A stretch of DNA of 59,042 nt, filler included. It is 7 parts of 7 records of this genome, joined end to end, with 100 filler letters (N's around TTAATTAATTAA, not from the genome) between each part and the next. Parts side by side here need not be neighbours in the genome. Positions count along the whole stretch, not along the records: positions 31,151 to 37,662 come from SRR31156797_41810; 6 more parts are not named here. One strand, 5' to 3'. The notes under the pieces were generated by a model. That model had not been told where the DNA came from. It did no database searches and worked only from the letters and a program-made list of their open reading frames with translations. Positions within the stretch are counted from its first letter, which is position 1. Each line of letters begins with the position of its first letter. Shown here piece by piece: positions 23,223 to 46,582 of this stretch. The translations under genes were made by a program, and so were the position numbers.

Positions 23223-23322
23223 NNNNNNNNNNNNNNNNNNNNNNNNNNNNNNNNNNNNNNNNNNNNTTAATTAATTAANNNNNNNNNNNNNNNNNNNNNN
23301 NNNNNNNNNNNNNNNNNNNNNN
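23223..23322. other. Artificial contig spacer
   Basis: N/TTAATTAATTAA/N. Confidence 0.97.
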
Positions 23323-23422
23323 AAAATCCCTCATTTCTGGACAGACACTATCGAGGAGTAAATTCCCCCGGATTCATCCCCCCTGCTTTTTTTACTGTTC
23401 CCTTATAAAAAACTTGGCGCCG

Positions 23423-23450
23423 CTTCACAAAAATGTCATACATTTGTCAC
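23423..23450 (+). promoter_or_regulatory. Pho-box-like (PhoB/OmpR) direct repeats
   Basis: CTTCAC(23423), TGTCAT(23434), TGTCAC(23445) at exact 11-bp period, about 50 nt before the binding-protein start. Confidence 0.55.
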
Positions 23451-23502
23451 AGACTTGCAACACTTTAACCAGCCCCGCCAAGGAGGCTACTGGAGGTGAA
23501 AG

Positions 23503-24501: not shown

Positions 24502-24691
24502 GCGCATCGGCGCCCATGAACATAAAAGCTTCCGGCGATTTGCCGGGAGCCGTCATGGGCGGCCGGCATAAAACCGGATTTGTTCGACTAACACCAAAGG
24601 GAACCGCGGCGCGGAGTTTTTTTCCAGCCGAGGAAAAAAATCTCCCCGCTGTTCCATGGATATTCAGTTTCAGTGTATTGGAAAACCGAGC

Positions 24692-27465: not shown

Positions 27466-27532
27466 AAAGGGGGCAGGAGCCTAAAAAAACAATTGAATCC
27501 GGATAGCACGGCCGTCAGGCGGAAAGTGAGAG

Positions 27533-27561
27533 TTGACAACCCGAATCCATGGACCTACACT
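27533..27561 (+). promoter_or_regulatory. sigma70-type promoter upstream of the ThuA cluster
   Basis: TTGACA-N17-TACACT. Confidence 0.55.
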
Positions 27562-27645
27562 GGACTTCAAATTCTATGAATGGTACGGAAAATCCGTTTT
27601 TCATCAAGCCGATCTTAAATTTGAGCCTGAATTCATGGAAACGGT

Positions 27646-28284
27646 ATGCCGGAAAATCACCTTAATATTCTGGAAATATCAACCGGACTGATTCATCCAA
27701 GTTTACCGGCGCGGATGATTCTGCACAGGATTCTCGACATCCTGCCTGCCGCCAACATTACCCGGTCGTCCAGTATCGAAGCTGCCCGACAACTGTCCCT
27801 CGATCGGTTTCATTCGGTTGTGATCTATCTTCACCGCAAAAAAATCTCCGCATCGGCGCTTCGGGCGCTCGACAGGTTTGTGGCTGAAGGTGGAGGCCTT
27901 TTGGCAATACACTCGGCCACTGCCTCCTTTAAAACATCAGACAAGTATTTCGATTTATTAGGCGGCAGATTCGTTGGCCACGACCCGGTGATGGAATTTG
28001 AAATCATTCCCCGAAATCTGCCGGAATCCCCCTTTTCCACAGGGTCGCCCTTTACGGTAAGGGATGAACTATATATTCATGAAATAAAAAACGACATAAC
28101 AGTCCACCATCATTCCGTGTTCAAGGGAAATAAAGAGCCCGTGGTTTGGACCAGGCGGCATCACCAGGGACGGGTCTGTTACCTGGAGCCGGGGCACTGC
28201 GCCTCATCCTTGAAACACCCGGAAATGGTAAAGCTGGTGAAAGAAGGACTGGCTTGGGTAAGTAAACCCGGAGAAGAAAAATGA
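27646..28284 (+). CDS. ThuA-like domain protein
   Basis: FVAEGGGLLAIHSA, GGRFVGH, DELY, PVVWTR..GRVCY..PGH. Confidence 0.85.
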   Translation: MPENHLNILEISTGLIHPSLPARMILHRILDILPAANITRSSSIEAARQLSLDRFHSVVIYLHRKKISASALRALDRFVAEGGGLLAIHSATASFKTSDKYFDLLGGRFVGHDPVMEFEIIPRNLPESPFSTGSPFTVRDELYIHEIKNDITVHHHSVFKGNKEPVVWTRRHHQGRVCYLEPGHCASSLKHPEMVKLVKEGLAWVSKPGEEK

Positions 28285-29315
28285 CCGCCGATGCGCGCCT
28301 TCGCTTCGGTATCGTCGGTTGCGGCGATATAGCCAGGTTTATGGCGTTTGCAGGATGGTTGAACCGGGGAATAAAAATCGAGGCATGCGTCGATCTCGAC
28401 GGAGGTCGGGCGGCTTCATTTGCCAGGCGTTTTCGAATTCCAGCCCATTTTACTGATTACCAACGAATGCTGGAGACTGTTCCTCTTGATGCTGTCTATC
28501 TGGCCGTGCCGCACCACTTGCATCATCCAATGATTCTTCAAGCTCTTGACCGGGGTAACCATGTTTTTTGCGAGAAGCCGGTCACCATCAACCTTGACCA
28601 GGCCCTTGATATCTGTAGAAAGGTCAAGGAGACCTGTTTAAAAGTCGGGGTCAATTATCAGTATCGGTATGATTCCGGCTGTCATGCCCTGGCCCGGGCG
28701 TCGCTAAAAGGAGAGCTTGGCCGGGTTTACTATAGCCGGTGCAATGTTTCGTGGCGCCGAACCGATGAATATTTCACTTCGTGCACCTGGCACGCCGAGC
28801 GGGAAAAAGCCGGGGGCGGAACTCTGATAACCCAGGCCAGCCATGCCCTGGACATCCTTCTTTGGGCCTCGCCGGCCCAACCTGCATCGGTCTTTGGAAT
28901 TGTAGATCAATGCAAGTTCACTGACGTCGAAGTGGAAGACCTTTGCCTGGCCATAGTCGAGATGTCTGACGGCAGCAAGGTTCAATTGGCCGGTTCCATG
29001 TCAGCCGCCCATGAACTCCCGGTTACGTTGGAAGTGTACGGCAGCCGGGCCACCGGATTATATAAAGGGCCCATGTGGCCGCGGGTTAAATTCAAAGGCG
29101 CCAAAGTTAAAAAATCAAGACCGCCGATCAAAGGAGTACATGCACTCACACGCAGCCTCGAAGGCTTCCGGCGCTGGGTGGTTGACGGCCTGCCGTACCT
29201 GACGCCGGTTGAAGAATCAATGCCTGTTCTGGCCGTGGTGGAAGCCGCCTATAAGTCAGCCGCAACCGGCTGCAAGGAGGAGGTAGACGACCGTTTTATC
29301 GAATTTCTTGAATAG
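28281..29315 (+). CDS. Gfo/Idh/MocA NAD(P)-dependent oxidoreductase
   Basis: GIVGCGDIA, HVFCEKP, GGGTLITQASHALD. Confidence 0.88.
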   Translation: MTADARLRFGIVGCGDIARFMAFAGWLNRGIKIEACVDLDGGRAASFARRFRIPAHFTDYQRMLETVPLDAVYLAVPHHLHHPMILQALDRGNHVFCEKPVTINLDQALDICRKVKETCLKVGVNYQYRYDSGCHALARASLKGELGRVYYSRCNVSWRRTDEYFTSCTWHAEREKAGGGTLITQASHALDILLWASPAQPASVFGIVDQCKFTDVEVEDLCLAIVEMSDGSKVQLAGSMSAAHELPVTLEVYGSRATGLYKGPMWPRVKFKGAKVKKSRPPIKGVHALTRSLEGFRRWVVDGLPYLTPVEESMPVLAVVEAAYKSAATGCKEEVDDRFIEFLE

Positions 29316-29341
29316 TGTATGTTCGGGGAAATGGAGGTATA

Positions 29342-30805
29342 ATGACTGAAACCATACAAGGCGAAAGTAAACTGCCTCTTAAAACAAAACTGGGCTTTGG
29401 CGCAGGCGATATTTTCGGAGGCGGCGCCTTGGTGGTTGTGGGATTCTATTACCTCTACTTCCTCACAGACGTCATACGCATCAATCCGGCTCTGGCCGGC
29501 ATTGTTTTTCTGGTCAGCAAGGCCTGGGACGCAGTGAGCGACCCGCTCATGGGTATAATATCCGATCGAACCCGGACGCGCTGGGGACGTCGGCGTCCTT
29601 ATTTTCTTATCGGTGTGATCCTGGTTTTTATATCCTTTTTCCTTATGTGGCGGCCGGTAAATTACGATCGTGAAATTTATAGATTCGCCTATGCCTTGTT
29701 CGCCTATATATTTTATTCCACGGTTTATACGCTGGTATGGATTCCATATAACGCATTGTCGTCCGAACTGACCCTTGATTATGACGAGCGAACCTCCCTT
29801 TCTTCTTACCGCATTTTCTTTTCCACTCTGTCCAGCATAGTCTGCGCTGTGGCCCCCCTGGAAATCGTTAAAATATTCAATGACAAAACAACGGGATATA
29901 CGGCGATGGGCCTTATTTTGGGCGTATTTTTCGCCCTCCCCTACCTGGCCGTGTTTTTTACCACAAAAGAGAGGGTGGAATTCAGGCCGGTCAGTGAAAA
30001 ACCCTCCCTTAAGACATTTACAGCCCCCTTCAAAATCAAGGCTTTCCGTCGGGTCCTGGGCATGTATCTTTTCGCTTTCGTGGCCATGGATACTCTAATG
30101 ACCATCGTCATATATTTCATGACCTATTACATCCTTCAAGGCGATCAGACCAATTACGTTTTAGGGACCATGCTGGTGGTGCAAATTATATCAATTCCCT
30201 TCTATTATAAGCTCAGCAAAAGAACCAGTAAGAAGGCCGGGTACATGACAGCCGCCTGCATCTGGTGCATCGCCATGCTGTTCAGCCTTTTCCTCGGCCC
30301 CGGGCTGCCGGTGTTCCTGGTCTATTTATTCTCCGCCTTTATCGGCTCCGGCACTGGAGGGATTATTGTGATGATCTTTTCCATCCTGCCCGACATACCC
30401 GACATAGATGAACTAAACACGTCCCAGCGTCAGGAAGGCGTGTATTCCGGACTGTTCACCTTCATGAGAAAATTAAGCTCGGCCCTGGCCATTTTCATTA
30501 TTTCAAACGCTATCATGCTGGCCGGTTATAAAGCGCCCATCGAACAGACTGTTGAAGGCGTCACACAGGTTGTTAAGCAGACTCAATCAGACGAATTCAT
30601 CCTGGTCCTGCGCCTGGTCTTCGCCTTTCTGCCCTTTACTTTTTTGATTATCGGGCTGATGTTCGCCAGGCGCTACCCGTTGAGCCATGAAGTCCACGCC
30701 CGCCTGCGAGGATATTTGGAAAAAAAGCGGGCCGGAATCGAACCGGATGAAGAGATGATAAAAGACGAAGCTGATTTGAAGTCCATATTAATCGGCCAAC
30801 CTTGA
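29342..30805 (+). CDS. GPH-family (MelB-like) MFS sugar:cation symporter
   Basis: WDAVSDPLMGIISDRTRTRWGRRRPY, PY.ALSSELT.DYDERT, EGVYSG...RK; GGAGG RBS before ATG 29342. Confidence 0.9.
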   Translation: MTETIQGESKLPLKTKLGFGAGDIFGGGALVVVGFYYLYFLTDVIRINPALAGIVFLVSKAWDAVSDPLMGIISDRTRTRWGRRRPYFLIGVILVFISFFLMWRPVNYDREIYRFAYALFAYIFYSTVYTLVWIPYNALSSELTLDYDERTSLSSYRIFFSTLSSIVCAVAPLEIVKIFNDKTTGYTAMGLILGVFFALPYLAVFFTTKERVEFRPVSEKPSLKTFTAPFKIKAFRRVLGMYLFAFVAMDTLMTIVIYFMTYYILQGDQTNYVLGTMLVVQIISIPFYYKLSKRTSKKAGYMTAACIWCIAMLFSLFLGPGLPVFLVYLFSAFIGSGTGGIIVMIFSILPDIPDIDELNTSQRQEGVYSGLFTFMRKLSSALAIFIISNAIMLAGYKAPIEQTVEGVTQVVKQTQSDEFILVLRLVFAFLPFTFLIIGLMFARRYPLSHEVHARLRGYLEKKRAGIEPDEEMIKDEADLKSILIGQP

Positions 30806-31050
30806 TGTAAAATAAAGCAAGCCTTCGCTAAATATGGCATTTGGGTAATATATCCGTGGGCAGCCGGTTTACCAAAATGAAAAAAATAGAGGCTGACTTC
30901 CCAATTGTATAACAGAGCAAGGCTCCATGGTCTCCGCGTTTTTGGACTGGCTCTCATATTTCAGCTTGAAGGCCTTTTGCTGATTGTAGCAGTTATAGTG
31001 GTTCTCAAAAGTATTGCCCTATTAACCAGGGCATAAGAAGGGCACGGCGC

Positions 31051-31150
31051 NNNNNNNNNNNNNNNNNNNNNNNNNNNNNNNNNNNNNNNNNNNNTTAATT
31101 AATTAANNNNNNNNNNNNNNNNNNNNNNNNNNNNNNNNNNNNNNNNNNNN
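31051..31150. other. Artificial contig spacer
   Basis: N/TTAATTAATTAA/N. Confidence 0.97.
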
Positions 31151-31365
31151 CCTTAAACCCTTTCGGATGAGGTTTCACACCCTGCAACATGATCAATAAA
31201 CTTTCTACCATAATTCACAGGTCCTGTAAATAATAAATACAATATGATGTGATAGAAAAATTTTTAATGCCAAGATGTAGTGCAGTTTCTTTTCATTTTG
31301 GAATGATGTTGACATATTCCCGGCAAAATCCCTATTATCGGGTACCAACATAATGGAGTGATACC

Positions 31366-32019
31366 ATGATGGATCTTACGGAAGCGATGAAAAAAAGAAG
31401 GAGCACCCGTGCTTTTCTGGAAAAACCGGTGGCCCGGGAGAGGCTGGAACAGCTTGTTCATCTGGCCACACAGGCGCCCTCGGCCATTAACCTTCAGCCA
31501 TGGGAGTTGACCGTTGTGTCCGGAGAAGAGAAAAAGCGATTGAGCCGGTTGCTGGTCAAGCGCATGAAGGAAAGAAACATCTCCTGTGCACCGGGAGCGA
31601 AGAAGCCTCTATCAGAATCGTATGTGGAGAGACAGCGGGGACTTTTGAATACCATTCAACCCCACCTGCCGGAAAATACCGTGTTTCAGGAATTCATTAA
31701 TGAGGGGAGTTGCAACTTTTATGGAGCGCCCACAGCCATCATCATCAGCATGGACCAGGTTTTTTCAAGTGCCAGGCTCACGGACATCGGCGTTCTGGTG
31801 GGTTATCTGGTTCTGGCTGCCCATGGGTTGGGGCTGAGCACCTGTCCCATCGGCCTGATCACGGCATTTGATGAAGAAATTAAAGAGGAACTGAACCTTT
31901 CGGACGAAAAACAGGTGGTCATCGGCGTTGCCGTGGGATACGGCGATCCCGACGCTCCCATCAATGGCGGCCGATCGGAACGGGTTCCCCTTCAGGATGT
32001 TGTGAAATGGCGGCTTTAG
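31366..32019 (+). CDS. Nitroreductase family protein
   Basis: RRSTRAF, APSAINLQPW, LAAHGLGLSTC, VAVGY. Confidence 0.9.
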   Translation: MMDLTEAMKKRRSTRAFLEKPVARERLEQLVHLATQAPSAINLQPWELTVVSGEEKKRLSRLLVKRMKERNISCAPGAKKPLSESYVERQRGLLNTIQPHLPENTVFQEFINEGSCNFYGAPTAIIISMDQVFSSARLTDIGVLVGYLVLAAHGLGLSTCPIGLITAFDEEIKEELNLSDEKQVVIGVAVGYGDPDAPINGGRSERVPLQDVVKWRL

Positions 32020-32876
32020 ACCAAAGCCTTCCGCCATCCCGGAACGGTTACGGCCGGGTGGGGGTGGCTTTTTCCTCCGGCTTTTTCGGTTTTTTTGCAC
32101 ATGCCGGATTTCTGGCGGCCCTTCGGGAAATGAAGATTGTCCCTGTCGCCTTTGCCGGGGCCAGTTCAGGTGCCATTGTGGCGGCCATGGCCGCTACGGA
32201 AATGCCCAGTGAAGACATCCGTGACCTTTTGTTCAACGTTCAAAAAGCCGATTTCTGGGATCCCGATCCCTTCCCCGAGTTTCTGAAAAGCGCCTTGCGG
32301 CTGTTCCGGGGATATGCCGGTTATCTCAGGGGAAATGGTTTTGCACGGCTACTGAAAAAGTTGCCGGCGAAAGGATTTGAGGCATGCCGGTACCCCCTGG
32401 CCATTTCAGCCGTTGATGTAACCCACAGAAGAGAAAAAATCTTTACAAAAGGCGATCTCGTCAAGGCCATTCAGGCCTCGGGGTCGGTCCCCATGCTCTT
32501 TAAGCCCGCTAAAATTGGCGGCGCTCTCTACCTGGATGGCGGCATCAGCGGCAAGGCGCCGGTGGAAGCCCTGGTGGATCTTTGTGATCTGGACAGAATC
32601 CTGATCCATTTCATCCCTTCCGAGAACGTGAAAAAACCGGGCAACGGTTTCATGAAAAAAAAATTCACCCCCTGGCGGATGCAGCACATCGCCATCAATA
32701 CGGCCCGGATGGAAAATTATGAAAGGCAGAAAAGGATCGTGGCATTGCGGGGGGTGGAGGTCATTGAAATCAACTCCGGCGCACCATCCATGGGCCCCAA
32801 CGGCCTGGATAAGGGGCCGGTCGTTTACCAAGCCGCAAAAACCTCGACTTTAAGGCAACTGGAGAAGGTGCTTTAG
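32007..32876 (+). CDS. Patatin-like phospholipase
   Basis: AH.G, GASSG nucleophile, YLDGG. Confidence 0.88.
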   Translation: MAALDQSLPPSRNGYGRVGVAFSSGFFGFFAHAGFLAALREMKIVPVAFAGASSGAIVAAMAATEMPSEDIRDLLFNVQKADFWDPDPFPEFLKSALRLFRGYAGYLRGNGFARLLKKLPAKGFEACRYPLAISAVDVTHRREKIFTKGDLVKAIQASGSVPMLFKPAKIGGALYLDGGISGKAPVEALVDLCDLDRILIHFIPSENVKKPGNGFMKKKFTPWRMQHIAINTARMENYERQKRIVALRGVEVIEINSGAPSMGPNGLDKGPVVYQAAKTSTLRQLEKVL

Positions 32877-32929
32877 GGGATTGCGGACCATTTTTCGATC
32901 TCGAAAAGGAAATTCTTATCACTCCGACG

Positions 32930-33991
32930 ATGACATCCGCTGAACGAGTTCAAGCCGCTGTTTTGCTTAAGGAGCCGGACCGTGTACCTGTTTTCACATT
33001 CCCATTCTCAATTTCGCATCGAGTTTACGGATGTACCTTGGGAGAGTGGATTCAAGATGGCGAATTGGCTGGAAAGAGCGCCGTCCAGTACCAAAAACTG
33101 ATCGGCGACGATATTGTGCTGGGTGGTCTTGACGCCATGACAGAAGCCCGCGGTTTTGGCCAGGAGATTATTTTCCCTAAAGATGCAACCTCTTACCCTA
33201 ACTTTGACAACCCGCTTGTAAAGACCCCGGACGACTACTTCAAATTGGAACGTTACGACCCTACTAAAGCGCCTCGAACGAAGGAGTTGATCAGGCAGGT
33301 TGATGTTATTGCGAACGAACTTGGTTCGACTGTGGCAGTCGCGGCCTGTATAATCGGGCCTTTGGAAACTCTCATTAATATGCGGCCGGCCGAGAAGATG
33401 CTGAGAGACTGCCTGAAATTCAAAGAAGGCGTTATCCATGCCGTGGAGATCATCACCGACGTGGAGCAAGACCTTGTCAAAGCGTTGGTCAAAGCCGGTG
33501 CATCTATTTTTTATAATTGCGTCTCTCTCGGCTCTAATACGATCATGAGCGAGAAGCTCTGGCTGGAGATCGAAGGACCCATTATGGCTCGTTGGGCGGA
33601 AACCGTGCGGGGATGTGGTGCAAAACTTGCGCTTCACAACTGTGCCAACGGCCCCTATGTCCAGGCGCAAATAAATAGCTGCAACCCGGATGTATATCAC
33701 ATCTCCCACCTCCCCCTTGACTGCAAGGACTGGAGGGAAGTCAAAAAGAAATATGGCGGAAAAGTTTGCCTCCAGGGATACGTGGATGCGACCTATCATG
33801 GCGTTTTTGGCAACCCGGAGGAAATAAAAGAAGAGTGCAGGAAGCAGATTCAAGAACTCGGGAAGGGCGGCGGATACATCCTGGGATCCGGATGCGAATA
33901 CCCGTCTAACGCTTCCTTGCTAAATGCCAAGGCAATGGTGGAAGCGGCGGTGCTTTACGGCCCAGATGGGAATCAGGGACCTTTTTCTTAA
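32930..33991 (+). CDS. UroD/MtaA-CmuA family (methylcobamide methyltransferase-like) protein
   Basis: ERV...EPDRVP, EARGFG, LHNC (HxC zinc motif), GGYILGSGCE. Confidence 0.8.
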   Translation: MTSAERVQAAVLLKEPDRVPVFTFPFSISHRVYGCTLGEWIQDGELAGKSAVQYQKLIGDDIVLGGLDAMTEARGFGQEIIFPKDATSYPNFDNPLVKTPDDYFKLERYDPTKAPRTKELIRQVDVIANELGSTVAVAACIIGPLETLINMRPAEKMLRDCLKFKEGVIHAVEIITDVEQDLVKALVKAGASIFYNCVSLGSNTIMSEKLWLEIEGPIMARWAETVRGCGAKLALHNCANGPYVQAQINSCNPDVYHISHLPLDCKDWREVKKKYGGKVCLQGYVDATYHGVFGNPEEIKEECRKQIQELGKGGGYILGSGCEYPSNASLLNAKAMVEAAVLYGPDGNQGPFS

Positions 33992-34012
33992 TGTTTTGTG
34001 GAATAGAGGACA

Positions 34013-35032
34013 ATGACCATCAACTCCTTACGAAATGCCGAAGACATCAACCGAATCGCATTCGGATACATGGCATCCAAGGCCTTGTTCAGCGCATTGG
34101 AGTTCAATGTCTTCTCCATCCTTGCGGAAAATCCACGCACCCTTCGTGCCATCGCCGAGAAGACCGGGATTACCGAGAATCGTGCCGAGATTCTACTGAC
34201 GGCCCTGGTGAGCGTTGGACTGGTGGTGAGGGAAAGTGGGAAGTACTGCAATTCTTCTGCCAGTGATAATTATCTTGTTCCGGGTCGGAAGAACTTTTTC
34301 GGCGATTATCTTCGCATGCAGATTGCTCGACAGATGTACCCATCCATGCAGCGATTGGATTCGGTTTTATCGTCTGGAGAAGACGCCTCACACCTTTGCA
34401 GCTACTCCGATTGGATGAGTGATCCGGAGCAAGCTGAGATTTTCAGCCGTTCGCAGCATATCGGTTCACTGGGCCCCGCTGCGGTTTTCGGCAAACGGGT
34501 GGATCTGACGGGGTGCAAACGTTTGCTCGATGTGGGGGGTGGAACCGGAGCATTCTGCATCGCACTATGCCGCCAATATCCTGAACTCCAGGCCACGATA
34601 ATTGATTTTCCCAACGTTACCAAGGTGGGGTCCGAATTTGTCGCCAGGGCGGGTCTGAGTGACCGCATTGTCTTTCTGGATGCTGATGTGCTTGATACTC
34701 CCTGGCCCGACAATCACGAAGCCGTACTGATGTCATATTTTGTTAGCGCCATTCCCGCCAAACAAATTGGCAAAATATTTAAAATGGCAAGACAAGTGTT
34801 AACACAAGAGGGTTTGCTCCTCATTCATGACTTTATGGTAAACGACGATTTTACCGGGCCGATGCTTTCCGCCCTCTGGACACTTCAACATCTATTATTT
34901 TCACCGGAGACAATGTCTTTAAGCCCTGGAAGGTTGAATAAAAAGCTTGATGAAGCCGGCTTCTCAGTGCTCGATGGGGGTACTTTGATTCCGGGAATGA
35001 CACGTTTCCTGGTTGCAAAGAAAAGAGCTTGA
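34013..35032 (+). CDS. dsyB: DsyB-like SAM-dependent S-methyltransferase (MTHB methyltransferase family)
   Basis: IAFGYMASKALF, FGDYLRMQ..RQMY, SQHIGSLGPA, LDVGGGTGAF, DFPNV, LMSY, IHDFMV...GP..ALWTLQH..F.P, IPGMT; 339 aa. Recognised from recalled DsyB/DSYB motifs, not from a search. Confidence 0.75.
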   Translation: MTINSLRNAEDINRIAFGYMASKALFSALEFNVFSILAENPRTLRAIAEKTGITENRAEILLTALVSVGLVVRESGKYCNSSASDNYLVPGRKNFFGDYLRMQIARQMYPSMQRLDSVLSSGEDASHLCSYSDWMSDPEQAEIFSRSQHIGSLGPAAVFGKRVDLTGCKRLLDVGGGTGAFCIALCRQYPELQATIIDFPNVTKVGSEFVARAGLSDRIVFLDADVLDTPWPDNHEAVLMSYFVSAIPAKQIGKIFKMARQVLTQEGLLLIHDFMVNDDFTGPMLSALWTLQHLLFSPETMSLSPGRLNKKLDEAGFSVLDGGTLIPGMTRFLVAKKRA

Positions 35033-35139
35033 ATCGGGTTGAACGAGATGGAACAACGGGATTTCAATTTCTTCCACACAATCCGCGTACACTATGGCCT
35101 GATTATTTCAGAGGGTCTGAATATGAAATGTTTGCTGGA

Positions 35140-35346
35140 TCACTGGAGATACGGTTCTTCAATCAGTTTGAGCCTGTAGATGGCAACATGCTCAAATCCC
35201 CGGTTCTGAAGTTTTTTGATGTGCCCCCGGACGACATCGATTTTTTCAAGGGGAAATACGCTCGCCTTGTCAAGACCCACAAAGAGATAGGTATCCTCTT
35301 TGACCCGTATATATTCGGTTTTGTTTTTCATGATCAGGAGTTCCAT
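35140..35346 (-). CDS. Small hypothetical protein
   Basis: ORF of about 63-68 aa directly downstream of, and co-oriented with, the hydrolase. Confidence 0.5.
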   Translation of the reverse strand: MELLIMKNKTEYIRVKEDTYLFVGLDKASVFPLEKIDVVRGHIKKLQNRGFEHVAIYRLKLIEEPYLQ

Positions 35347-35352
35347 TGTTTC

Positions 35353-36228
35353 CTACCCCTTGCGGGCTGAATTGTGATCCGTTGAAACATCCACCCTTTC
35401 CAGGTGCCGTGATACAAAGGATTTGATGGCATCCGGATACCGGGGGTCCAGACTGGAGTTGCTGTGGTTGGACCCTGTGGCCACAAATAATTCCGCCCCT
35501 CCCCCGGGGAAACCGTCCCGCAGGCGCCAGGCGTGGTGAAGGGGAAAGCTCCGGTCCTTTTCGCCGTGGATGATCAGCACCGGTACATGAATGCGTTGAG
35601 CCAGTCGCTCGGGGCTTATGCCATCCATTTGAAACCCATAGTAAATATCCATCCACAAAACGATCATGGGTCCAAAAAACCAACCGAAAACAAGGTTAAC
35701 GCTCCTGTAAAGGTTGCGCAGGCCTTCTTTCGTCCTCGCATAACACCCTTCCAGAAACAGCAGCCTGATACGATCCGGATACCGGGAGGCTGCCAGAATG
35801 GCGCCGGCAGCTCCCGCGGAATGCCCATACAGAAGGACCGGTTCGTCCAGCCGGTTCAGGATTGCTTCAATATCTTCGGCAAAACGGAAGGCGTTCATGG
35901 ACCGGTTGGGGCTGGAATTGCCATGGTCCCTGGCACTGTGGAAGACCGTTTTAAACCCCAGTTTGCCGAGAATTCTGGCCCGAGCCGTCATTCGATCCCG
36001 GTTTCGACTCCACCCATGGGCCAGCAGAACGGTCCCCCTTGAGGGACTTTCCGGTTCCACAATCCATGTTTCCAGCATTCCTCCGTCCACGGTGGGGATT
36101 TGAATATCTTCAACGTGACCCCAGTCGGGTTTATCCTGAACCGGCCTGCGGGGAATTTGATGGAGGAGATATGTCAGAAAGAGCGTCAATAGCAGATAAA
36201 CCGCTGCCGCAACAATGAGGAACCCCAT
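35353..36228 (-). CDS. Membrane-anchored alpha/beta hydrolase
   Basis: N-terminal TM, HGW, GHSAG, IIHGEKD, H of the triad. Confidence 0.88.
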   Translation of the reverse strand: MGFLIVAAAVYLLLTLFLTYLLHQIPRRPVQDKPDWGHVEDIQIPTVDGGMLETWIVEPESPSRGTVLLAHGWSRNRDRMTARARILGKLGFKTVFHSARDHGNSSPNRSMNAFRFAEDIEAILNRLDEPVLLYGHSAGAAGAILAASRYPDRIRLLFLEGCYARTKEGLRNLYRSVNLVFGWFFGPMIVLWMDIYYGFQMDGISPERLAQRIHVPVLIIHGEKDRSFPLHHAWRLRDGFPGGGAELFVATGSNHSNSSLDPRYPDAIKSFVSRHLERVDVSTDHNSARKG

Positions 36229-36254
36229 GAATAATCGGCCACTCCTTATGTTTG

Positions 36255-36683
36255 TTAACCGTTATTGAGGATGTCTGAGATATTTTCAGCTGTTGCTTTG
36301 ATCTCATCCATATCCCCGGGTACGATTTCCCATTTTGAAACCGGAAGGTCGGGCCCCCCCGGAATTTTTGGGATCAGGTGAAGGTGGTAGTGCATGACCA
36401 CCTGATTGACGCCTCTTCCGTTGAGCTGAACGCAGGCCACGCCCGATGCCTTCAATGCCTTGTCGATTCCCGCCATCACTTTTTTGGATGCCCTGTGCAC
36501 GGCGGCGAGATCTTCATCGGAAATTTCCTTGAGATTTTCCGCATGGTTTTTGGGAATAATCAGGGTGTGTCCCGGAGATATGGGATTAATGTCCAAAAAC
36601 GCCAGAACCCGGTCATCCTCATACACCTTGAAACTTGGAATTTCCCCTTTAATGATTTTACAAAAGATGCAGTCTTCCATCAT
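36255..36683 (-). CDS. HIT family protein
   Basis: CIFCKI, FLDINP..PGHTL, HYHLH. Confidence 0.93.
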   Translation of the reverse strand: MMEDCIFCKIIKGEIPSFKVYEDDRVLAFLDINPISPGHTLIIPKNHAENLKEISDEDLAAVHRASKKVMAGIDKALKASGVACVQLNGRGVNQVVMHYHLHLIPKIPGGPDLPVSKWEIVPGDMDEIKATAENISDILNNG

Positions 36684-36690
36684 CGACCTC

Positions 36691-36999
36691 CTAGTCCGCC
36701 AATCCGTTTTTTTGGATAATGCCTTGAATCAACAACTTTTTTTCTTCAGCCATATCAGACGCCTTTTTAATGTTCATGGACCGCATGACGTCATAGGACC
36801 CATCTTCAAAGACCACCGGCACCTGGGTGATGTAATCCGGATGGTGGCAACAACCCGGTGCAAAATAGCGACCTGCTCTTCCTCCCTCGCGAAGGGTTTT
36901 TTGCGCCCTGTCATACATGTCCTGGTTCATAACCATACCGACCTGCCCATTGAAAGCGGCGACCGTTTGCCCTGGATCAAAAAGTCTTTTTTTTTCCAC
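36691..36999 (-). CDS. Hypothetical protein
   Basis: 102-aa ORF with GGAGG RBS, in operon position; YFAPGCCHHPDY motif. Confidence 0.7.
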   Translation of the reverse strand: MEKKRLFDPGQTVAAFNGQVGMVMNQDMYDRAQKTLREGGRAGRYFAPGCCHHPDYITQVPVVFEDGSYDVMRSMNIKKASDMAEEKKLLIQGIIQKNGLAD

Positions 37000-37023
37000 C
37001 GTTGTTTTTTCCTCCGTCCCTGT

Positions 37024-37662
37024 CTACTGATTATCCGGAAGGTTTATGGACGAAACAAGCTGTTTAAGGGGTTTAAGGCCGTGGTCCCCCGCTTGATCAA
37101 TGAGTGAAATAAGGGTTTTGAGAGCTCTGGGAATATGAGTCTCAAAATGGGTTTTTTTCATGATCTTTGACAGGAATGAAAAGGCCCCCAGGATCTGAAG
37201 GTTCCGTTGTATGGCCAGATAGGGATAGTCCCGCTTAAATGGGGCGACCCATGCGGGATTGCGGTTTGCGATCAGGGCTACATAGAGGTCGTAGATTTCC
37301 TGCTTCTGGAAATCTGATAACCGCACATAGGGGTCAATCAGAAGCGACGAGAGATCATAGGCCAGGGGGCCCAGCCGCCCGCCCTGCCAGTCGATGATGC
37401 CGATTCTTTCACCCTTCACCATAATGTTTCTGGATTGAAAATCCCGATGCATGAAGAACCGTCCATCCGCCCGAGACGCCTTTTCCGCCAGTTGATCAAA
37501 GGCGGTTTCAAGACCTAGGCCTACCTTTTCATACCCCAGAAAACCTTTCAGAAAGGCATCCCTGAAATAGTGGGCTTCATATTTCCGCATTACGGTTCGA
37601 TCATAACGCTCGGTTTGACAGCACCATGCGGGGTCAAATCCTTCTCCTCCCTGAACCTGTAA
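37024..37662 (-). CDS. Aminoglycoside-phosphotransferase-like kinase (AmgK-like), 5'-truncated
   Basis: HRDFQSRNIM, IDWQG.R.GP..YDL.SLL.D, QRNLQILGAF; frame open to the contig edge. Confidence 0.85.
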   Translation of the reverse strand, partial: LQVQGGEGFDPAWCCQTERYDRTVMRKYEAHYFRDAFLKGFLGYEKVGLGLETAFDQLAEKASRADGRFFMHRDFQSRNIMVKGERIGIIDWQGGRLGPLAYDLSSLLIDPYVRLSDFQKQEIYDLYVALIANRNPAWVAPFKRDYPYLAIQRNLQILGAFSFLSKIMKKTHFETHIPRALKTLISLIDQAGDHGLKPLKQLVSSINLPDNQ

Positions 37663-37762
37663 NNNNNNNNNNNNNNNNNNNNNNNNNNNNNNNNNNNNNN
37701 NNNNNNTTAATTAATTAANNNNNNNNNNNNNNNNNNNNNNNNNNNNNNNNNNNNNNNNNNNN
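37663..37762. other. Artificial contig spacer
   Basis: N/TTAATTAATTAA/N. Confidence 0.97.
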
Positions 37763-37884
37763 AAACCTGATAATAGCCATATTAACAGTGTTTCATCTCT
37801 TCTTCGGCCCGGACCTTGCCTGTCCGGGCCGAAACCGTTTACGCCTATTTAGCAGCTTTTTAAAAAACTTACTGATTTTGGATC

Positions 37885-37914
37885 TTGACAAAAAGTATAA
37901 CATTGTTATACTTT
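37885..37914 (+). promoter_or_regulatory. sigma70 promoter overlapped by a perfect palindrome (probable TetR operator)
   Basis: TTGACA-N16-TATACT; AAAGTATAACA-T-TGTTATACTTT at 37892-37914. Confidence 0.7.
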
Positions 37915-37950
37915 ATTGGAAGTTATTGATAAAATTCTTCCAAGGATGTC

Positions 37951-38616
37951 ATGTCCTCATTAAGAGCCCAAAATATAGAGAAAAACAAGCAGCGCATCCT
38001 GGCGGCCGCCCGCGATATTATCCTGGAAAAAGGCATTGATGCTCTTTCCATAAGGAAGCTGGCCGACGCTTCGAAACTGGCCCTCAGGACGATCTATAAC
38101 CTTTACGGCGCCAAGGAAAATGTCATCATTGCGGTTTTAGAACAGGGAACCAAGGGCATTGAAGAGGCGATTACGGAACTGGAAAACTCCATGGCCCGGG
38201 GGCCTTGGAAGACGGAATATTATATGGACTGGATAAGTTCGGTTGAACGCGTCTTTCTTGACAACAAAGAACTTCTTAAGCCTGCCATGCTGGCCGGTGA
38301 GACACTGAGTCAACTTGGTTCAGGCGACGCTTCCGCCATGCACGGGAGACGTATACGGAAATTTAGAAATGTCCTGCAAATGGCCGCGGATAGCAACTTG
38401 ATTTGGAATGACCTGGACATGGAAGTAGTTACCCATCTCATGTACCGCAACTACATGAGCGTGGCCGTGCAATGGGCACAAGGGGAAATAGACGACCGGG
38501 AACTGGTGGTTCATGGCCGGTATAATATCCTTTCAATGCTGCACACCCTGATTAATGAAGCTCCGCGGCGTGAGAGAACCCTGGAACTTCTGAGAGAATT
38601 AAAGGATTTTACATAA
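37951..38616 (+). CDS. TetR/AcrR transcriptional regulator
   Basis: ILAAARDII.EKG....SIRKLA.......TIYNLYGAKE helix-turn-helix. Confidence 0.9.
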   Translation: MSSLRAQNIEKNKQRILAAARDIILEKGIDALSIRKLADASKLALRTIYNLYGAKENVIIAVLEQGTKGIEEAITELENSMARGPWKTEYYMDWISSVERVFLDNKELLKPAMLAGETLSQLGSGDASAMHGRRIRKFRNVLQMAADSNLIWNDLDMEVVTHLMYRNYMSVAVQWAQGEIDDRELVVHGRYNILSMLHTLINEAPRRERTLELLRELKDFT

Positions 38617-38713
38617 ATTAATAAATGCCCTTTTGAATGAGAATTAAGTTGGTCTTGATAAAAACAGGAAAAACATCTGTTTGAAGAAAATCAACAATCA
38701 GGGAGAACATCCT

Positions 38714-41119
38714 ATGAAGCTGCTAAAAATCATACTGATTATTGTGCTGGTCCTTACTGCATCGGCTTTTGCCGCTTTTCATTTCTTTTTTAAACTGCCT
38801 GTTCCTGAATATTCCGGGACCATACAGATTGCCGGCCTGACCGATCAGGTAACTGTAAAAACCGACCAGTATGGAATACCTCATGTTTTTGCTGAAAATG
38901 AAAAAGATCTGTTTTTTGCTCAAGGCTATATTACAGCCAGGGAAAGGCTGTTTCAAATGGACATGACTCGGATGGCGGGTCGCGGAGAATTATCCTCAAT
39001 TTTTGGCGAAAGAACTATTGATAAGGATCGTTTCTTGAAAACTGTCGGTTTTTATCGCCAATCGAAAAAGAACTACCAGATTCTGTCGGAGGAAAGTAAA
39101 GAAATCCTCAAGGCATATGCCGACGGCGTGAATGCCTATATTAGAACCTGCAAGAATTTGCCAAGGGAATATGTGTTCCTGGGGGCCAAGCCGGAACCTT
39201 GGGTTCCAGAAGATTCCATGGTCATAACCATGCTCATGTCTTACAGCCTGACCCGTTCCAAGAAAGTCGACCTGATTTTAAACAAAATAAGGGAGCAAAA
39301 AGGCGACGAGATTATAAAAAGCATTTCTCCTTCTTTTCCTGATTTTGCGCCTACATTGACAAAGAGTCGAAACCCAGTGACTTCGGAAGTATTTAAAACC
39401 CCGGGCGGCATTAATACAGGCGTTACCAAGGCGCTTGTGGAAGACGATGATGTTTTTCCCTTTTCATTCGATATTGCAGCCTCCAACTGGATGATTTTTT
39501 CTCCTCAATTGACAAGCACAGGCAAGGCTCTTTTTGCCGGAAGCCCGGATCTGTCGCCGACTCTGCCTGCTATGTTCTATATCATACATTTAAAAACAGA
39601 AGAGATTGACATCATCGGCGGCGCCATTCCGGGCGTGCCGGGTTTAGGTCCATTAGGGTTTAACGGCACATTTGCCTGGAGTGCGGTGAACGGACGAGGG
39701 GACGAACTGGACTATTTTATAGAAAAAATAAATCCGGAAAATCCGAACCAATACCTGACTGAAAATGGTTATAAAGACTTTGAGCTTATTGAGGAAACCC
39801 TCAGAATCAAGGGTGAAGATGGAATTCGCGAAGAAAAGCTCACGGTCAGGATTTCCCGACACGGGCCGATTATATCCAGTGTTATGCCTGAGGCCCCGGA
39901 AAACTGCTCCATGCAGTGGACAGCCCTTGAGTTGCCGGGCCGGGACATTGACGGGCTCGTTGGTTTACTCGGGGCGAAAAATTTCGAAGAATTCAGGACC
40001 GGCCTAAGCCTGGTCAGGACCATGAATTTGAATATCGGATACGCGGATATAAACGGTAATATCGGGTGGCAATTCACGGCCGGACCTCCCATAAGAAAAA
40101 AAGGCAACGGATCGCTGCCGGTTCCCGGGTGGACTGGCGAGTATGACTGGCAGGGATTTGTTCCTTTTGAAGATTTGCCATATGATTACAACCCGGAAAA
40201 AGGATATGCGGCGTCTTTTAATAATGACCCCGGCAATGTGGACTATTACCTGACCAATTATTATTTGTTTGAAAGGGCTATACGGTTTGAGCAGATAATG
40301 GCTGACCGGGGCGATAAGCCGGTTGATTTTTCCCAATTAAAAGAAATGCAGTTGGACAGGATTTCCGTGGTGGCCCAAAGATGGGTTCCGCTGATATTAG
40401 ATGCCTGTAAGTCTGACAATAACCTCAAGCCTTATACGACCCTTCTTGAAAACTGGGATTTTTCAATCGACATGCAAAGTTCGGCGGCAACGATTTTCAA
40501 CTTCTTTTACTACTTGATGATGAAAAACACTCTCATGGATGAAGTGGGCGAAGAAATGTGGGAAAATGGCCTCGGCAATGAATACCTTTACTATATTCCC
40601 GATTTAGCGCTTACAAAAATTATAAAAGACAATAAGAATAATCTGTATGACGACAAGGCCACCAAGGACATTCAGGAAAGCCGGGACGATATTATTAAAA
40701 AAAGCATGGACCAGACCATTGAATTTCTGTCTGAAACTTTTGGAGAGGATACCGGCAAATGGAAATGGGGCCTGGTCCATAAAATGAGTTTTAATCACCC
40801 GCTGGGGGAAAAGCTCTTCTTTTTAAACCTTGATCCCGTTGCGACCCATGGCTCTCATCACACCATAAACTCGGGGTTCTGGACTCCCAAGAGGCCGCTT
40901 GAAATGACCTCGGGCGGGGTCATTCGGATTATGGTTGATTTTGCCGACATTGAAAAGTCCACCATCATCAGCCCGCCCGGGCAGTCCGGGCATTATAAAA
41001 GCCCATATTATGACGATATGGCTGAAACATGGGCTAAAGGCGACCAGGTTCCCATGAGATACAAATCAGCCATGGACCTGGATAAGACATTAATCCTGAC
41101 GCCTGCTTCCAGTAATTAA
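38714..41119 (+). CDS. Penicillin acylase / S45 Ntn-hydrolase
   Basis: D.YGIPHVFA, FAQGY..A.ERLFQMD..R...GELS, beta-chain SNW, HGP, PGQSG..SPYYDD. Start taken at MKLLK behind a GGAG RBS. Confidence 0.9.
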   Translation: MKLLKIILIIVLVLTASAFAAFHFFFKLPVPEYSGTIQIAGLTDQVTVKTDQYGIPHVFAENEKDLFFAQGYITARERLFQMDMTRMAGRGELSSIFGERTIDKDRFLKTVGFYRQSKKNYQILSEESKEILKAYADGVNAYIRTCKNLPREYVFLGAKPEPWVPEDSMVITMLMSYSLTRSKKVDLILNKIREQKGDEIIKSISPSFPDFAPTLTKSRNPVTSEVFKTPGGINTGVTKALVEDDDVFPFSFDIAASNWMIFSPQLTSTGKALFAGSPDLSPTLPAMFYIIHLKTEEIDIIGGAIPGVPGLGPLGFNGTFAWSAVNGRGDELDYFIEKINPENPNQYLTENGYKDFELIEETLRIKGEDGIREEKLTVRISRHGPIISSVMPEAPENCSMQWTALELPGRDIDGLVGLLGAKNFEEFRTGLSLVRTMNLNIGYADINGNIGWQFTAGPPIRKKGNGSLPVPGWTGEYDWQGFVPFEDLPYDYNPEKGYAASFNNDPGNVDYYLTNYYLFERAIRFEQIMADRGDKPVDFSQLKEMQLDRISVVAQRWVPLILDACKSDNNLKPYTTLLENWDFSIDMQSSAATIFNFFYYLMMKNTLMDEVGEEMWENGLGNEYLYYIPDLALTKIIKDNKNNLYDDKATKDIQESRDDIIKKSMDQTIEFLSETFGEDTGKWKWGLVHKMSFNHPLGEKLFFLNLDPVATHGSHHTINSGFWTPKRPLEMTSGGVIRIMVDFADIEKSTIISPPGQSGHYKSPYYDDMAETWAKGDQVPMRYKSAMDLDKTLILTPASSN

Positions 41120-41168
41120 TATGGATTTGGCTGGTGTAGATTCCCTTTTTATTTAATCTTGCTTATCT

Positions 41169-41213
41169 GGGGCGTCTCACTTATCTGTTAAAGGAAGATA
41201 AGCAAGGCGCCCC
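41169..41213. terminator. Stem-loop between convergent genes
   Basis: GGGGCG..CTTATCT / AGATAAG..CGCCCC imperfect inverted repeat. Confidence 0.5.
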
Positions 41214-41257
41214 CAAAACTCAAGATCTTAGCTGTTTCGATCCGGTAAGCTTGTCGC

Positions 41258-42304
41258 TTATTTCTTTTCAACCCCGGCTTTCATATCCGCTCCCGGAACA
41301 GGAACGTATGCCCTGAGGATGCCGTAAAAAGGCTTGCCTGTAGGGATGCCGTTCAGGCCTTCACCAGTTGGGCTTAGAGTGATGGTGTAGGTTCCATCTT
41401 CGTTCTTTTTGGAGGTATAAGTGGTTCTATCGTAGATTTTCTTATCATTAGGAATAAGGAGTTTGTTATCAACACCGTAAATGGTCACGGAAAAATAACC
41501 GTCATCTTTAACAATATTTGCCGGTACGGTGACAACATACGTGTTCTTGCCGTTGAGCGGCTCCCCGGTGTCGTCTGTGAGGATTCCCCAGTATCGCACT
41601 GTATCAGGGGGCGTGCCGAGTTGCCCCAATCGCACGCCGGCTGCAAGGCTTAGCTCTCCAACATCTCCGGATTTCTTTCCAAAAGAGTCGTCCGGATTAG
41701 CAACAGTTGTCATGGCGTCAATGACCGTCAAGGCGTTTTTTTCAATCTCTGGAGAAAAACGTTGCACATTTCTCACCATGGCGCCCTTGCCGCCTTCCAT
41801 GGTGATTGCCTTGCTCAACCGGCGCACTTCATCCATATTGTCGACAACCACCATCCTGGTAAGCACAAGCCCCTGGTCTGTTTCCATCTCTACTATAATA
41901 AAATCTCCCTTTGGCTTCTTTTGCCCGGGGCGCTTAAGCAGAATCGGTTTTTCCGGATTTGTAATAACCGCTGGAATGTTGTGCTTCATGTCGAAGATGG
42001 ATACCGAGAAAAACTTATCATAGGTCGGAGTTCTCACGACGGCCGGCCCATCGGATAGTGAAAACCAGTTATATCCGTAATCAACGGTTGCTTGCGGTGT
42101 GACGACCGTGGCATCGGTCGGGTCGACTAATCCTGTAAAATGAAAAGCGCCTTTTTCATGTTTTTCGAGCCAGGCATTCATCATCTTAACTTGTTCCTGG
42201 TGAGGATATTCTCGAATATACTCTTCAATAGTGTCTAAAGCGAAAGCTGCTGTGGAAAAAGAAATGAGAAAAAACACTGCAATAATAGCAAAAATACGTT
42301 TCAT
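41258..42304 (-). CDS. Secreted DUF1254/DUF1214 protein
   Basis: Signal peptide from MKRIF, VVTP...D..Y, D..GEPLNG...Y, YFSVTIY, YGILRAYVP. Confidence 0.8.
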   Translation of the reverse strand: MKRIFAIIAVFFLISFSTAAFALDTIEEYIREYPHQEQVKMMNAWLEKHEKGAFHFTGLVDPTDATVVTPQATVDYGYNWFSLSDGPAVVRTPTYDKFFSVSIFDMKHNIPAVITNPEKPILLKRPGQKKPKGDFIIVEMETDQGLVLTRMVVVDNMDEVRRLSKAITMEGGKGAMVRNVQRFSPEIEKNALTVIDAMTTVANPDDSFGKKSGDVGELSLAAGVRLGQLGTPPDTVRYWGILTDDTGEPLNGKNTYVVTVPANIVKDDGYFSVTIYGVDNKLLIPNDKKIYDRTTYTSKKNEDGTYTITLSPTGEGLNGIPTGKPFYGILRAYVPVPGADMKAGVEKK

Positions 42305-42722
42305 CCAACTTCTCCTGTTTTGAATGTGATTCATATTAACTGATTCACAAATCAATTTCGATAATTTCGTTGATATCCAATAATGACGCATGAATGACTG
42401 GTAAAAATGCCCACAGTCAATTTTTAGATATAGCCAATTCAATGGTAAATTACCAGATTTAATTATCTGTATAGGAAACAGCTGAAAGATCCGGAATATG
42501 AAAGCGAAGCCGCCGGTCCGACATTTTTGCGATCTTACGAATTGCGGCGGCATCCCTTTTGTTAGATTTCCGCTTCGTAGGTAGCTTTAGCGCAGCATAA
42601 TCCAACAACTGAAGCGGATTCCCACACTCCGGCCCCTGGTTCTATCCTCAGGAGCATATTATAGGGCTTTATCTAAATATTCATCTATATAACAGCCGGC
42701 TAACCGTTCTTTGGATTTTTTA

Positions 42723-42770
42723 TTGACACGCATTTCCAGGTTGTATATATAACCATATACATGTAATGGT
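42723..42770 (+). promoter_or_regulatory. hutU promoter with HutC-like operator
   Basis: TTGACA at 42723; near-palindrome GGTTGTATATATAACC (42739-42754) resembling the TGTA-N2-TACA HutC site. Confidence 0.55.
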
Positions 42771-42905
42771 ATTTGATCTGCCAATTTAAAATATCGTCCG
42801 GGTTGTCGGTGAGCGACAACTGCAAACCGATAGACCGCTTTATTTAATCACGCCCCGCATGGGGTTAATCTCAAAAACCTAATAAAACCGGAGGCCGGAA
42901 GCCTT

Positions 42906-44048: not shown

Positions 44049-44148
44049 NNNNNNNNNNNNNNNNNNNNNNNNNNNNNNNNNNNNNNNNNNNNTTAATTAA
44101 TTAANNNNNNNNNNNNNNNNNNNNNNNNNNNNNNNNNNNNNNNNNNNN
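44049..44148. other. Artificial contig spacer
   Basis: N/TTAATTAATTAA/N. Confidence 0.97.
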
Positions 44149-46573: not shown

Positions 46574-46582
46574 CTCGTAAAT

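Follow-up and report, generated by a model that had tools for sequence, protein, structure and literature searches.

The gene at 34013-35032 (+) of the 59,042-nt stretch of DNA analysed here (the window) very probably encodes a member of the DsyB family of S-adenosylmethionine (SAM)-dependent S-methyltransferases, and the assignment of its contig to a marine-sediment, sulfate-reducing, Desulfatiglans-like host from the Desulfobacterota holds. The family belongs to the synthesis of dimethylsulfoniopropionate (DMSP), one of the most abundant marine organosulfur compounds and the chief precursor of the climate-active gas dimethyl sulfide (DMS). Directly upstream lies a gene for a divergent methyltransferase of the MtaA/CmuA (MT2) type, and the two constitute a cassette that recurs in other genomes and samples. 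Judged by its sequence, the DsyB-like protein is fairly likely to be an acquired and functional S-methyltransferase of 4-methylthio-2-hydroxybutyrate (MTHB), making 4-dimethylsulfonio-2-hydroxybutyrate (DMSHB) or DMSP in anaerobes.

Family membership and binding residues

The open reading frame (ORF) starts with ATG and encodes 339 aa (P0001), exactly the coordinates and size given by the original prediction, and the reverse strand opposite it is full of stops. The product contains an N-terminal dimerisation domain and a class I methyltransferase domain (Pfam Dimerisation, residues 10-89, 3e-13; Methyltransf_2, residues 159-318, 7e-17). All eight motifs quoted as DsyB-like (IAFGYMASKALF, FGDYLRMQ, QMY, SQHIGSLGPA, DFPNV, LMSY, ALWTLQH, and IPGMT) are present in the translation. 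No NCBIfam model scores above its cut-off, the best being BchU (92 bits vs 276).

In a phmmer search against all PDB chains, the best match is DsyB from Nisaea denitrificans (PDB ID: 7wdq, E 6.3e-100), aligned without a single gap (query residues 6-333, chain residues 4-331) and thus at a constant offset of +2; the next solved family, RedM, follows at 4.4e-26. This alignment verifies the offset given in the original prediction and each residue mapped with it: Y99, Q103, Y131, Q148, S152, G175, D198, S241, and H293 are all in place, and F144 stands at the position of Nisaea Y142. In the Nisaea enzyme, the MTHB site comprises Y97, Q101, Y129, Y142, Q146, and H291, and the SAM site S150, G173, D196, D223, A224, and S239 (PMC10989797). 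Ten of these 12 published residues are identical in the window protein, five of six at each site; D223 is kept as D225, and the exceptions are Y142 (F144) and A224 (V226). The Y142F mutant of the Nisaea enzyme retains >30% activity (PMC10989797).

The AlphaFold2 model of the protein (predicted local distance difference test score, pLDDT, 95) superposes on chain A of 7wdq in both the dimerisation and the class I methyltransferase domain (TM-score 0.95, root-mean-square deviation 1.9 Å), with 47-48% identity over 334-336 columns. RedM chains come next in the structural ranking, with query-normalised TM-scores of 0.79-0.84. The protein also falls within the working rule for DsyB calls, at least 40% identity and at least 70% coverage (PMC11306096, PMC7494906). 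As homology predicts, it would probably S-methylate MTHB.

At E <=1e-20, 2,094 proteins are related to the window protein. The top group consists of metagenome proteins (P0002-P0008) with 68-94% identity; outside this clade, identity among the matches listed does not exceed 53%, and the named ones are alphaproteobacterial (Roseibium, Stappia, Breoghania, Ponticoccus, and others). Two clade members are named MTHB S-methyltransferase by the Joint Genome Institute (JGI), while the source names of relatives vary (UbiE, YrrM, hypothetical). For phylogenetic reconstruction, the best 150 of 208 matches (<=1e-30) from an exhaustive search of 1.84 billion representatives were taken; 96 rows of 300-420 aa were kept after removal of fragments and fusions, and 8 clade rows, 13 organism-named DsyB rows, and 12 further rows were added. 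A quick LG+G4 tree of these 129 rows contains a 59-row DsyB/DSYB superclade (support 100 in that tree's own measure), within which the window's clade (likewise 100) is one of several lineages of unsettled branching order. The eukaryotic DSYB lineage was recognised by the cluster names Prorocentrum, Bolivina, and Sulcionema.

A more careful tree was built from 69 rows (LG+C20+F+G4 by posterior mean site frequency, PMSF; supports as bootstrap/SH-aLRT), leaving out 7 bacterial DsyB-clade rows, 2 rows of an Acidobacteriota group, and 51 of the 67 outgroup rows. It supports the superclade at 100/99, the grouping of DSYB, bacterial DsyB, and the window's clade at 95/94, and that of bacterial DsyB with the window's clade at 86/85. 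The clade itself has 100/100 and a stem of 0.655 changes per site, and the nodes that nest it among bacterial DsyB rows have 83/81, 90/89, 83/87, 55/75, and 91/84. As placed by this tree, the clade is inside the bracket of two functionally ratified groups, DSYB and bacterial DsyB; a position outside the DsyB clade would have spoken against the original prediction. One protein from the transcriptome set of the choanoflagellate Diaphanoeca grandis (P0132) nests among bacterial DsyB and not within eukaryotic DSYB, which is explained either by bacterial sequences contaminating the transcriptome or by a transfer event of its own.

The binding residues discriminate well between the family and its surroundings in the 129-row alignment, in which 8 rows belong to the window's clade, 32 to the bacterial DsyB clade, 8 to DSYB, and 67 to the outgroup. 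Five of the six MTHB-site residues, Y97, Q101, Y129, Q146, and H291 in Nisaea numbering, are conserved in all eight clade rows and in all eight DSYB rows; in the bacterial DsyB clade, the first four occur in 32/32 rows and H291 in 30, the other two having gaps. The outgroup has Met in the Q146 column (51 rows) and in the H291 column (52 rows); Q101 is most often replaced by Met (13), the Y97 column is mixed (Tyr in 11), and Y129 corresponds to a gap in 49. Phe at the Y142 site is fixed in the window's clade (8/8) and occurs in 8 of the 32 bacterial DsyB-clade rows, most DsyB/DSYB rows having Tyr, and Val at the A224 site is found in five of the eight DSYB rows. Against 69 identically conserved positions, only two, T60I and L243F, are fixed in the clade and differ from a residue conserved in at least 85% of DsyB/DSYB, and both changes are conservative. 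DMSP or sulfonium synthesis and an offshoot with a new substrate, the two options that had been put forward, are still the right pair, and the scarcity of such changes favours the former.

Another lineage inside the superclade, with members from Acidobacteriota and Acidimicrobiia metagenome-assembled genomes (MAGs; P0124, P0125, P0127-P0129, P0134, P0141, and P0159), has H291, kept in the window's clade, replaced by Tyr, Ser, Cys, or Asn, and often Phe in place of Y129. This branch may be non-functional or substrate-shifted, though identity cut-offs would score it as dsyB.

Host lineage and the two-gene cassette

The window is made of seven contigs joined by artificial spacers, and only the contig at 31151-37662 (6,512 bp, 50.7% GC, bounded by spacers at both ends) counts as genuine context for the DsyB-like gene. 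Its taxonomic anchor is a gene for a patatin-like phospholipase (32007-32876, +; Pfam Patatin, 7e-31), located directly upstream of the cassette and outside it. The gene has 636 relatives at E <=1e-20, and among the 120 listed all ten that carry an organism name come from Deltaproteobacteria, among them delta proteobacterium NaphS2 (72% identity) and Candidatus Desulfacyla. In a possible source run (X1), one 26,402-bp contig contains the whole 6,512 bp with 0 differences, and the segment is therefore not a local chimera. The original prediction thus described the flanks correctly as deltaproteobacterial, rather than alphaproteobacterial or chimeric, and placed the gene's own contig rightly in the Desulfobacterota; it overlooked the concatenation with foreign contigs and the MT2-type gene upstream.

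A pattern derived from the clade alignment was scanned against one genome per species (185,579 species) and found only two loci, both in one long-read Desulfatiglandales MAG of 8.2 Mb (L002 and L003, on contigs of 3.39 and 2.22 Mb; 75% identity to the window protein). The 2.22-Mb contig carries dsrA (571 bits vs a cut-off of 393) in addition to one of the copies. Over >17 kb surrounding the cassette, L002 and L003 share 99.5% identity and were therefore counted as one locus present twice, which reflects either co-assembled strain variants or a large recent duplication. A further clade member, 88% identical to the window protein, comes from the single-cell genome of Desulfobacteraceae bacterium SEEP-SAG9 (PQP34999.1), so that the clade is present in a second order of the class Desulfobacteria. 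PF16867, the one DMSP lyase family searched for, was not found in the MAG, which is an incomplete genome.

The Desulfobacterota also contain a second, remoter DsyB-like lineage (L008, positions 1447-2469 of contig C283 of genome G323; 36% identity). It belongs to the cluster of P0151, which includes MBL7212612.1 from a Desulfobacteraceae MAG; its branch lies immediately outside the DsyB/DSYB superclade, and Y97 and Q146 are conserved in it, whereas H291 is not. The gene in G323 follows a DUF169 gene and not one of the URO-D family, which marks the pairing described below as specific to the window's clade.

The partner gene (32930-33991, +; 353 aa) encodes a full-length URO-D fold (Pfam PF01208, 7e-45, residues 2-340). 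Its top NCBIfam model is TIGR01463 (mtaA_cmuA) at 96 bits, below the cut-off of 235.4, and its sole sequence match in the PDB is MtaA from Methanosarcina mazei (PDB ID: 4ay7), with H236-x-C238 and C322 aligned to the H-x-C and C of that enzyme. C322 is invariant and H236 and C238 are at least 90% conserved across 16 relatives of the partner. In MtaA, we take these residues to be the zinc ligands that activate the thiol; to our knowledge, they are absent from true uroporphyrinogen decarboxylase. The model of the partner (pLDDT 92.3) matches MtaA best (PDB IDs: 4ay8 and 4ay7, TM-scores 0.83/0.86), with true uroporphyrinogen decarboxylases close behind at about 0.80. By motif and predicted fold, the partner is MT2-like and represents a divergent bacterial subfamily outside the curated family. 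The MAG encodes a 353-aa URO-D-family protein at the equivalent position, 81% identical, as well as about nine paralogues with 37-46% identity, and the partner appears to derive, as a specialised copy, from the MT2-type methyltransferases of the anaerobe itself. Two of the paralogue loci (L006 and L007) contain several URO-D genes together with DUF1638, DUF2284, and CbiM. No B12-binding protein was found among the 23 ORFs scanned there, so that the corrinoid link of the partner is drawn from its family.

The partner and DsyB-like genes are separated by 21 nt (33992-34012), with a Shine-Dalgarno-like AGAGG motif at 34005-34009. The terminator scan lists no terminator-like site between 33502 and 34277, and so none between the two genes, although promoter and terminator scanning was overall near the shuffled expectation. 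The cassette (32893-35090, +; about 2.2 kb) is conserved as a unit across genomes and samples. Nucleotide similarity (blastn) of the window contig to the MAG is limited to 32893-35025, and to a 2.2-kb metagenome contig (L001, 96% protein identity) to 33812-35093. The cassette also recurs, about 94-96% identical, on contigs of three independent runs: in X2 (marine sediment), the similarity extends over 32931-35090, with unlike sequence beyond; X3 covers 32829-35090; and X4 (marine) covers 32684-33536, with 216 unlike letters replacing 32880-32892, and 33917-35093. The edge at about 35090, shared by L001, X2, X3, and X4, indicates a recurrent breakpoint at the right end of the cassette, and since the other neighbours vary between carriers, the conserved unit is the two-gene cassette. 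In X3, 1,309 other letters replace 35091-35147, after which similarity resumes at 35148-35489. Runs X5-X16 contain no more than small shares, and no habitat is read from them.

Adjacency of the two genes was observed directly in the window, the MAG (two near-identical loci), L001, X2, and X3. The partner subclade spans 69-95% identity, followed by relatives at 50% or less, and thereby mirrors the DsyB clade. Four members of each occur on contigs of the same sizes (4284, 12188, 47825, and 9610 bp), which are presumably the same contigs. None of the runs listed as RNA contains the cassette, a result with no bearing on expression either way. A small ORF at 35029-35370, overlapping the DsyB stop codon, was rejected as a third member: it has no Pfam or NCBIfam match, similarity ends at about 35090, and the corresponding MAG gene differs.

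Repeats around the cassette are short, imperfect, and at chance level, with no terminal-repeat or mobile-element signature among them, and no transposase is encoded on 31151-37662. The GC content of the cassette is 0.50-0.51, and its GC at third codon positions (GC3) is 0.54-0.58, at or just below that of its neighbours (0.56-0.68; window contig and MAG), so that any transfer from a GC-rich donor was not recent. Elsewhere on the contig are genes for a nitroreductase (31366-32019) and, on the strand opposite to the cassette, an alpha/beta hydrolase (35353-36228), a HIT protein (36255-36683), and a truncated APH-family protein (37024-37590).

The six spacers, each 44 N + TTAATTAATTAA + 44 N, lie at 9090-9189, 15813-15912, 23223-23322, 31051-31150, 37663-37762, and 44049-44148 and delimit contigs at 1-9089, 9190-15812, 15913-23222, 23323-31050, 31151-37662, 37763-44048, and 44149-59042. 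GC content steps from about 38% to about 52% near 23 kb: the first three contigs (1-23222) have 38% GC and encode a SusC/SusD pair and TonB-dependent receptors, and contigs 4-7 have 47-52%. Tetranucleotide correlation is 0.86-0.92 within contigs 1-3 but 0.21-0.75 between them and contigs 4-7. To judge from SusC/SusD, contigs 1-3 look like those of a different, Bacteroidota-like organism, and the whole record is probably a mixed bin that holds this organism too. Where an ORF runs into a spacer, the gene is truncated and its reading frame is closed by stop codons within the spacer, e.g., the SusC-like gene at 20467-23202 (Plug domain from residue 2) and the urocanase gene at 42906-44096.

Proposed pathway and alternative explanations

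By homology to the Nisaea enzyme, the window protein is expected to be a homodimeric class I methyltransferase that would bind SAM via S152, G175, D198, D225, V226, and S241 and MTHB via Y99, Q103, Y131, F144, Q148, and H293, with methyl transfer to the thioether sulfur by proximity, without a metal or a catalytic base. The product would be the sulfonium compound DMSHB, which commits the transamination route to DMSP. Most likely, the gene entered the Desulfobacterota by horizontal transfer from a bacterial DsyB lineage and was later compositionally ameliorated; taken together, the patchy distribution over two orders, the likely nesting in bacterial DsyB, and the anaerobe-type partner suggest that the gene was acquired horizontally and that the cassette then spread. 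The DsyB gene would travel in this 2.2-kb, probably co-transcribed unit with an MT2-type gene recruited from the anaerobe's paralogue pool. The partner might methylate the thiol of a mercapto acid from a methyl-corrinoid, feeding or maintaining the thioether substrate, and the thiol would then be converted by two successive S-methylations, first to the thioether and next to the sulfonium compound. As end product, DMSHB or DMSP may serve as a compatible solute or stress protectant. As shown for the MT2-family enzyme MtpA from Methanosarcina, 3-mercaptopropionate is methylated with methylcobalamin (Km 12 uM), coenzyme M is not accepted, and thiol methylation is the favourable direction (bioRxiv 10.1101/548461). 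This precedent supports the proposed order of steps, with the partner responsible for the thioether and the DsyB-type enzyme for the sulfonium.

Several points weigh against the enzyme being an acquired MTHB S-methyltransferase that leads to DMSHB or DMSP. The step from DMSHB to DMSP is oxygen-dependent in algae. For DsyB-type producers, the responsible decarboxylase is described as still unidentified (PMC11306096). Both facts make DMSP uncertain as an end product in an anaerobe, and DMSP itself, as opposed to DMSHB or another sulfonium, is possible as the in-vivo product but hardly to be favoured. In the Nisaea crystal structure, the MTHB density is poor and >6 Å from S-adenosylhomocysteine (SAH), so that the binding residues mark an initial site; the authors of the structure consider them inessential for catalysis (PMC10989797). 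The tree rows are congeners (Roseibium, Stappia, and others) and unnamed representatives, instead of ratified DsyB/DSYB or known non-functional homologues. An approximately unbiased (AU) test did not reject a tree in which the 25 classical bacterial rows are held together (delta lnL 7.7, p 0.29; this grouping was chosen with a first tree already at hand). With the long stem (0.655), this leaves the donor unsettled, as positions nested in and sister to classical bacterial DsyB both fit. Carriers are rare: 1 of 209 genomes of the MAG's order, which is the MAG itself, and of 401 genomes sampled from the phylum only 2 have a match at 1e-45, the MAG and, through its 36%-identity relative, G323. The 6.5-kb contig encodes no corrinoid protein, and none was found among the MAG ORFs annotated within about 7 kb of the cassette in either direction; however, 38 B12-binding matches elsewhere in the MAG make a corrinoid partner in trans possible. 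Finally, the obligatory MT2-type partner could signal a different pathway context.

A substrate-shifted enzyme is an unlikely but still appreciable alternative. The DsyB offshoot would S-methylate another thioether made by the partner, e.g., methylmercaptopropionate (MMPA), from which DMSP would be obtained in one step and without decarboxylation, or a different methylthio-acid. The two genes would then suffice to take a thiol to a sulfonium compound, in a pathway well adapted to sulfidic sediment. In keeping with this are the strict association with a specialised MT2-type gene, the MT2-family enzyme that makes MMPA from 3-mercaptopropionate (bioRxiv 10.1101/548461), the long stem of the clade, and a host that presumably has no obvious route for oxidative decarboxylation of DMSHB. 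F144, fixed in all eight clade rows where most DsyB/DSYB have Tyr, might point the same way, but Phe is natural at this site in a quarter (8/32) of the bacterial DsyB-clade rows, the five diagnostic MTHB contacts are retained in 8/8 rows, and the clade-specific changes at strongly conserved sites amount to two conservative ones. A stronger form, rather improbable, makes the cassette an oxygen- and methionine-independent route to a sulfonium osmolyte in sulfidic sediments, the zinc MT2-type partner making the thioether from an abundant mercapto-acid such as 3-mercaptopropionate and the methyl group of a methyl-corrinoid, and the DsyB-type enzyme adding a second methyl group, that of SAM, to give DMSP (or DMSHB) directly. 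If true, this direct route would bypass the transamination steps and the missing decarboxylase, and sulfate reducers at methane seeps and in anoxic sediments would be a hidden in-situ source of DMSP and DMS.

It is quite improbable that the cassette serves methyl catabolism, shuttling methyl groups between thioethers or sulfoniums and the corrinoid/folate pool with the DsyB-like enzyme in a regulatory or salvage role. The partner does come from a family that serves corrinoid-dependent methyl transfer in anaerobes, and the MAG has its numerous paralogues and B12-binding matches; however, the cassette contains neither a corrinoid protein nor an activase, and a SAM consumer together with a methyl-harvesting enzyme would be futile. 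SAM-dependent sulfonium formation is also energetically costly and effectively irreversible. Two further explanations are scarcely credible. An alphaproteobacterial dsyB mis-binned or mis-assembled into this record is conceivable given its seven contigs, two GC classes, and three Bacteroidota-like members. Such an artefact is contradicted by the occurrence of the clade on Mb-scale contigs with dsrA and in a Desulfobacteraceae single-cell genome, by the deltaproteobacterial neighbour, by the collinear 26.4-kb assembly, by a gene GC that matches the host, and by identities of 68-94% within a separate clade vs 53% at most to bacterial DsyB outside it among the matches listed. An ordinary family-2 O-methyltransferase of secondary metabolism that resembles DsyB would agree with the generic Pfam domains, the absence of an NCBIfam match above cut-off, and the varying source names. 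It is contradicted by a gap of 74 orders of magnitude in E-value between DsyB and the next solved family, by a diagnostic residue set absent from the 67 outgroup rows, and by the superclade placement, as well as by the JGI names of the two clade members.

Relation to known systems and implications

Alphaproteobacterial DsyB (Nisaea 7wdq, Roseibium/Labrenzia, and Stappia) has the length, the two-domain architecture, and the phylogenetic bracket of the window protein. The window's clade differs in being separate and long-stemmed, about 47-53% identical, with the fixed Phe at the Y142 site and, at the clade loci seen here, a preceding MT2-type gene, and its host is a sulfate-reducing member of the Desulfobacterota, whereas those of alphaproteobacterial DsyB are aerobic. 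Eukaryotic DSYB (dinoflagellate, foraminifer, and diplonemid rows P0148, P0155, and P0147) shares the superclade, the five MTHB contacts, and, in those five of eight rows, the Val at the A224 site; it forms its own clade (99 in the quick tree's measure), has several N-terminal extensions, and is 35-39% identical to the window protein. The partner resembles Methanosarcina MtaA in its URO-D fold and H-x-C...C motif, and MtpA, likewise of the MT2 family, demonstrates that a member can methylate a mercapto-carboxylate specifically. Unlike MtaA, to which it is 19-20% identical, the partner is bacterial, has no adjacent corrinoid protein, and is coupled to a gene for a SAM-dependent sulfonium synthase. 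In DsyGD from Gynuella sunshinyii, the MTHB S-methyltransferase step is likewise physically coupled to a second pathway activity, but DsyG comes from an unrelated family of methyltransferases, and the decarboxylase DsyD, which resembles ureidoglycolate lyase, acts after the methylation step (PMC11306096); the partner here is a separate, upstream MT2-type gene.

According to a 2026 review, dsyB is found mainly in marine Alphaproteobacteria (PMC13360808), with few homologues in Bacteroidetes and Actinobacteria (PMC8543147). In the openly licensed PMC and bioRxiv literature, searches for DsyB in Desulfobacterota, Deltaproteobacteria, sulfate reducers, cold seeps, or anaerobes turned up no analysis of it, and a 2021 sediment study states that DMSP synthesis by any obligate anaerobe, and how it proceeds, was still to be established (PMC8543147). 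A coral-MAG paper labels any PF00891 protein as dsyB, a non-specific usage, and the legend of a proteome heat map of the cold-seep sulfate reducer Oceanidesulfovibrio marinus CS1 lists a 'DsyB' label that the text leaves without analysis (PMC10989961). The resemblance had thus been caught by automated annotation, as the JGI names of two clade members show, without discussion in the literature searched. What can be rated as new is the combination of a known enzyme family with a new host physiology and a new, fixed gene partnership.

If the gene is functional, dsyB primers for the polymerase chain reaction and cut-offs tuned to Alphaproteobacteria may miss the clade, and since its identity to other family members does not exceed 53% among the matches listed, producers in anoxic sediments may be under-counted; given its rarity among the genomes sampled, the quantitative weight of the clade may be small. 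A DsyB with an intact signature on Mb-sized contigs of a dsrA-bearing genome and in a Desulfobacteraceae single-cell genome provides a concrete gene and concrete lineages for the question of whether anaerobes make DMSP. For the little-understood steps on either side of MTHB and DMSHB in DsyB-type pathways, the MT2-type partner offers a lead, and it suggests a connection of sulfonium synthesis with corrinoid methyl metabolism.

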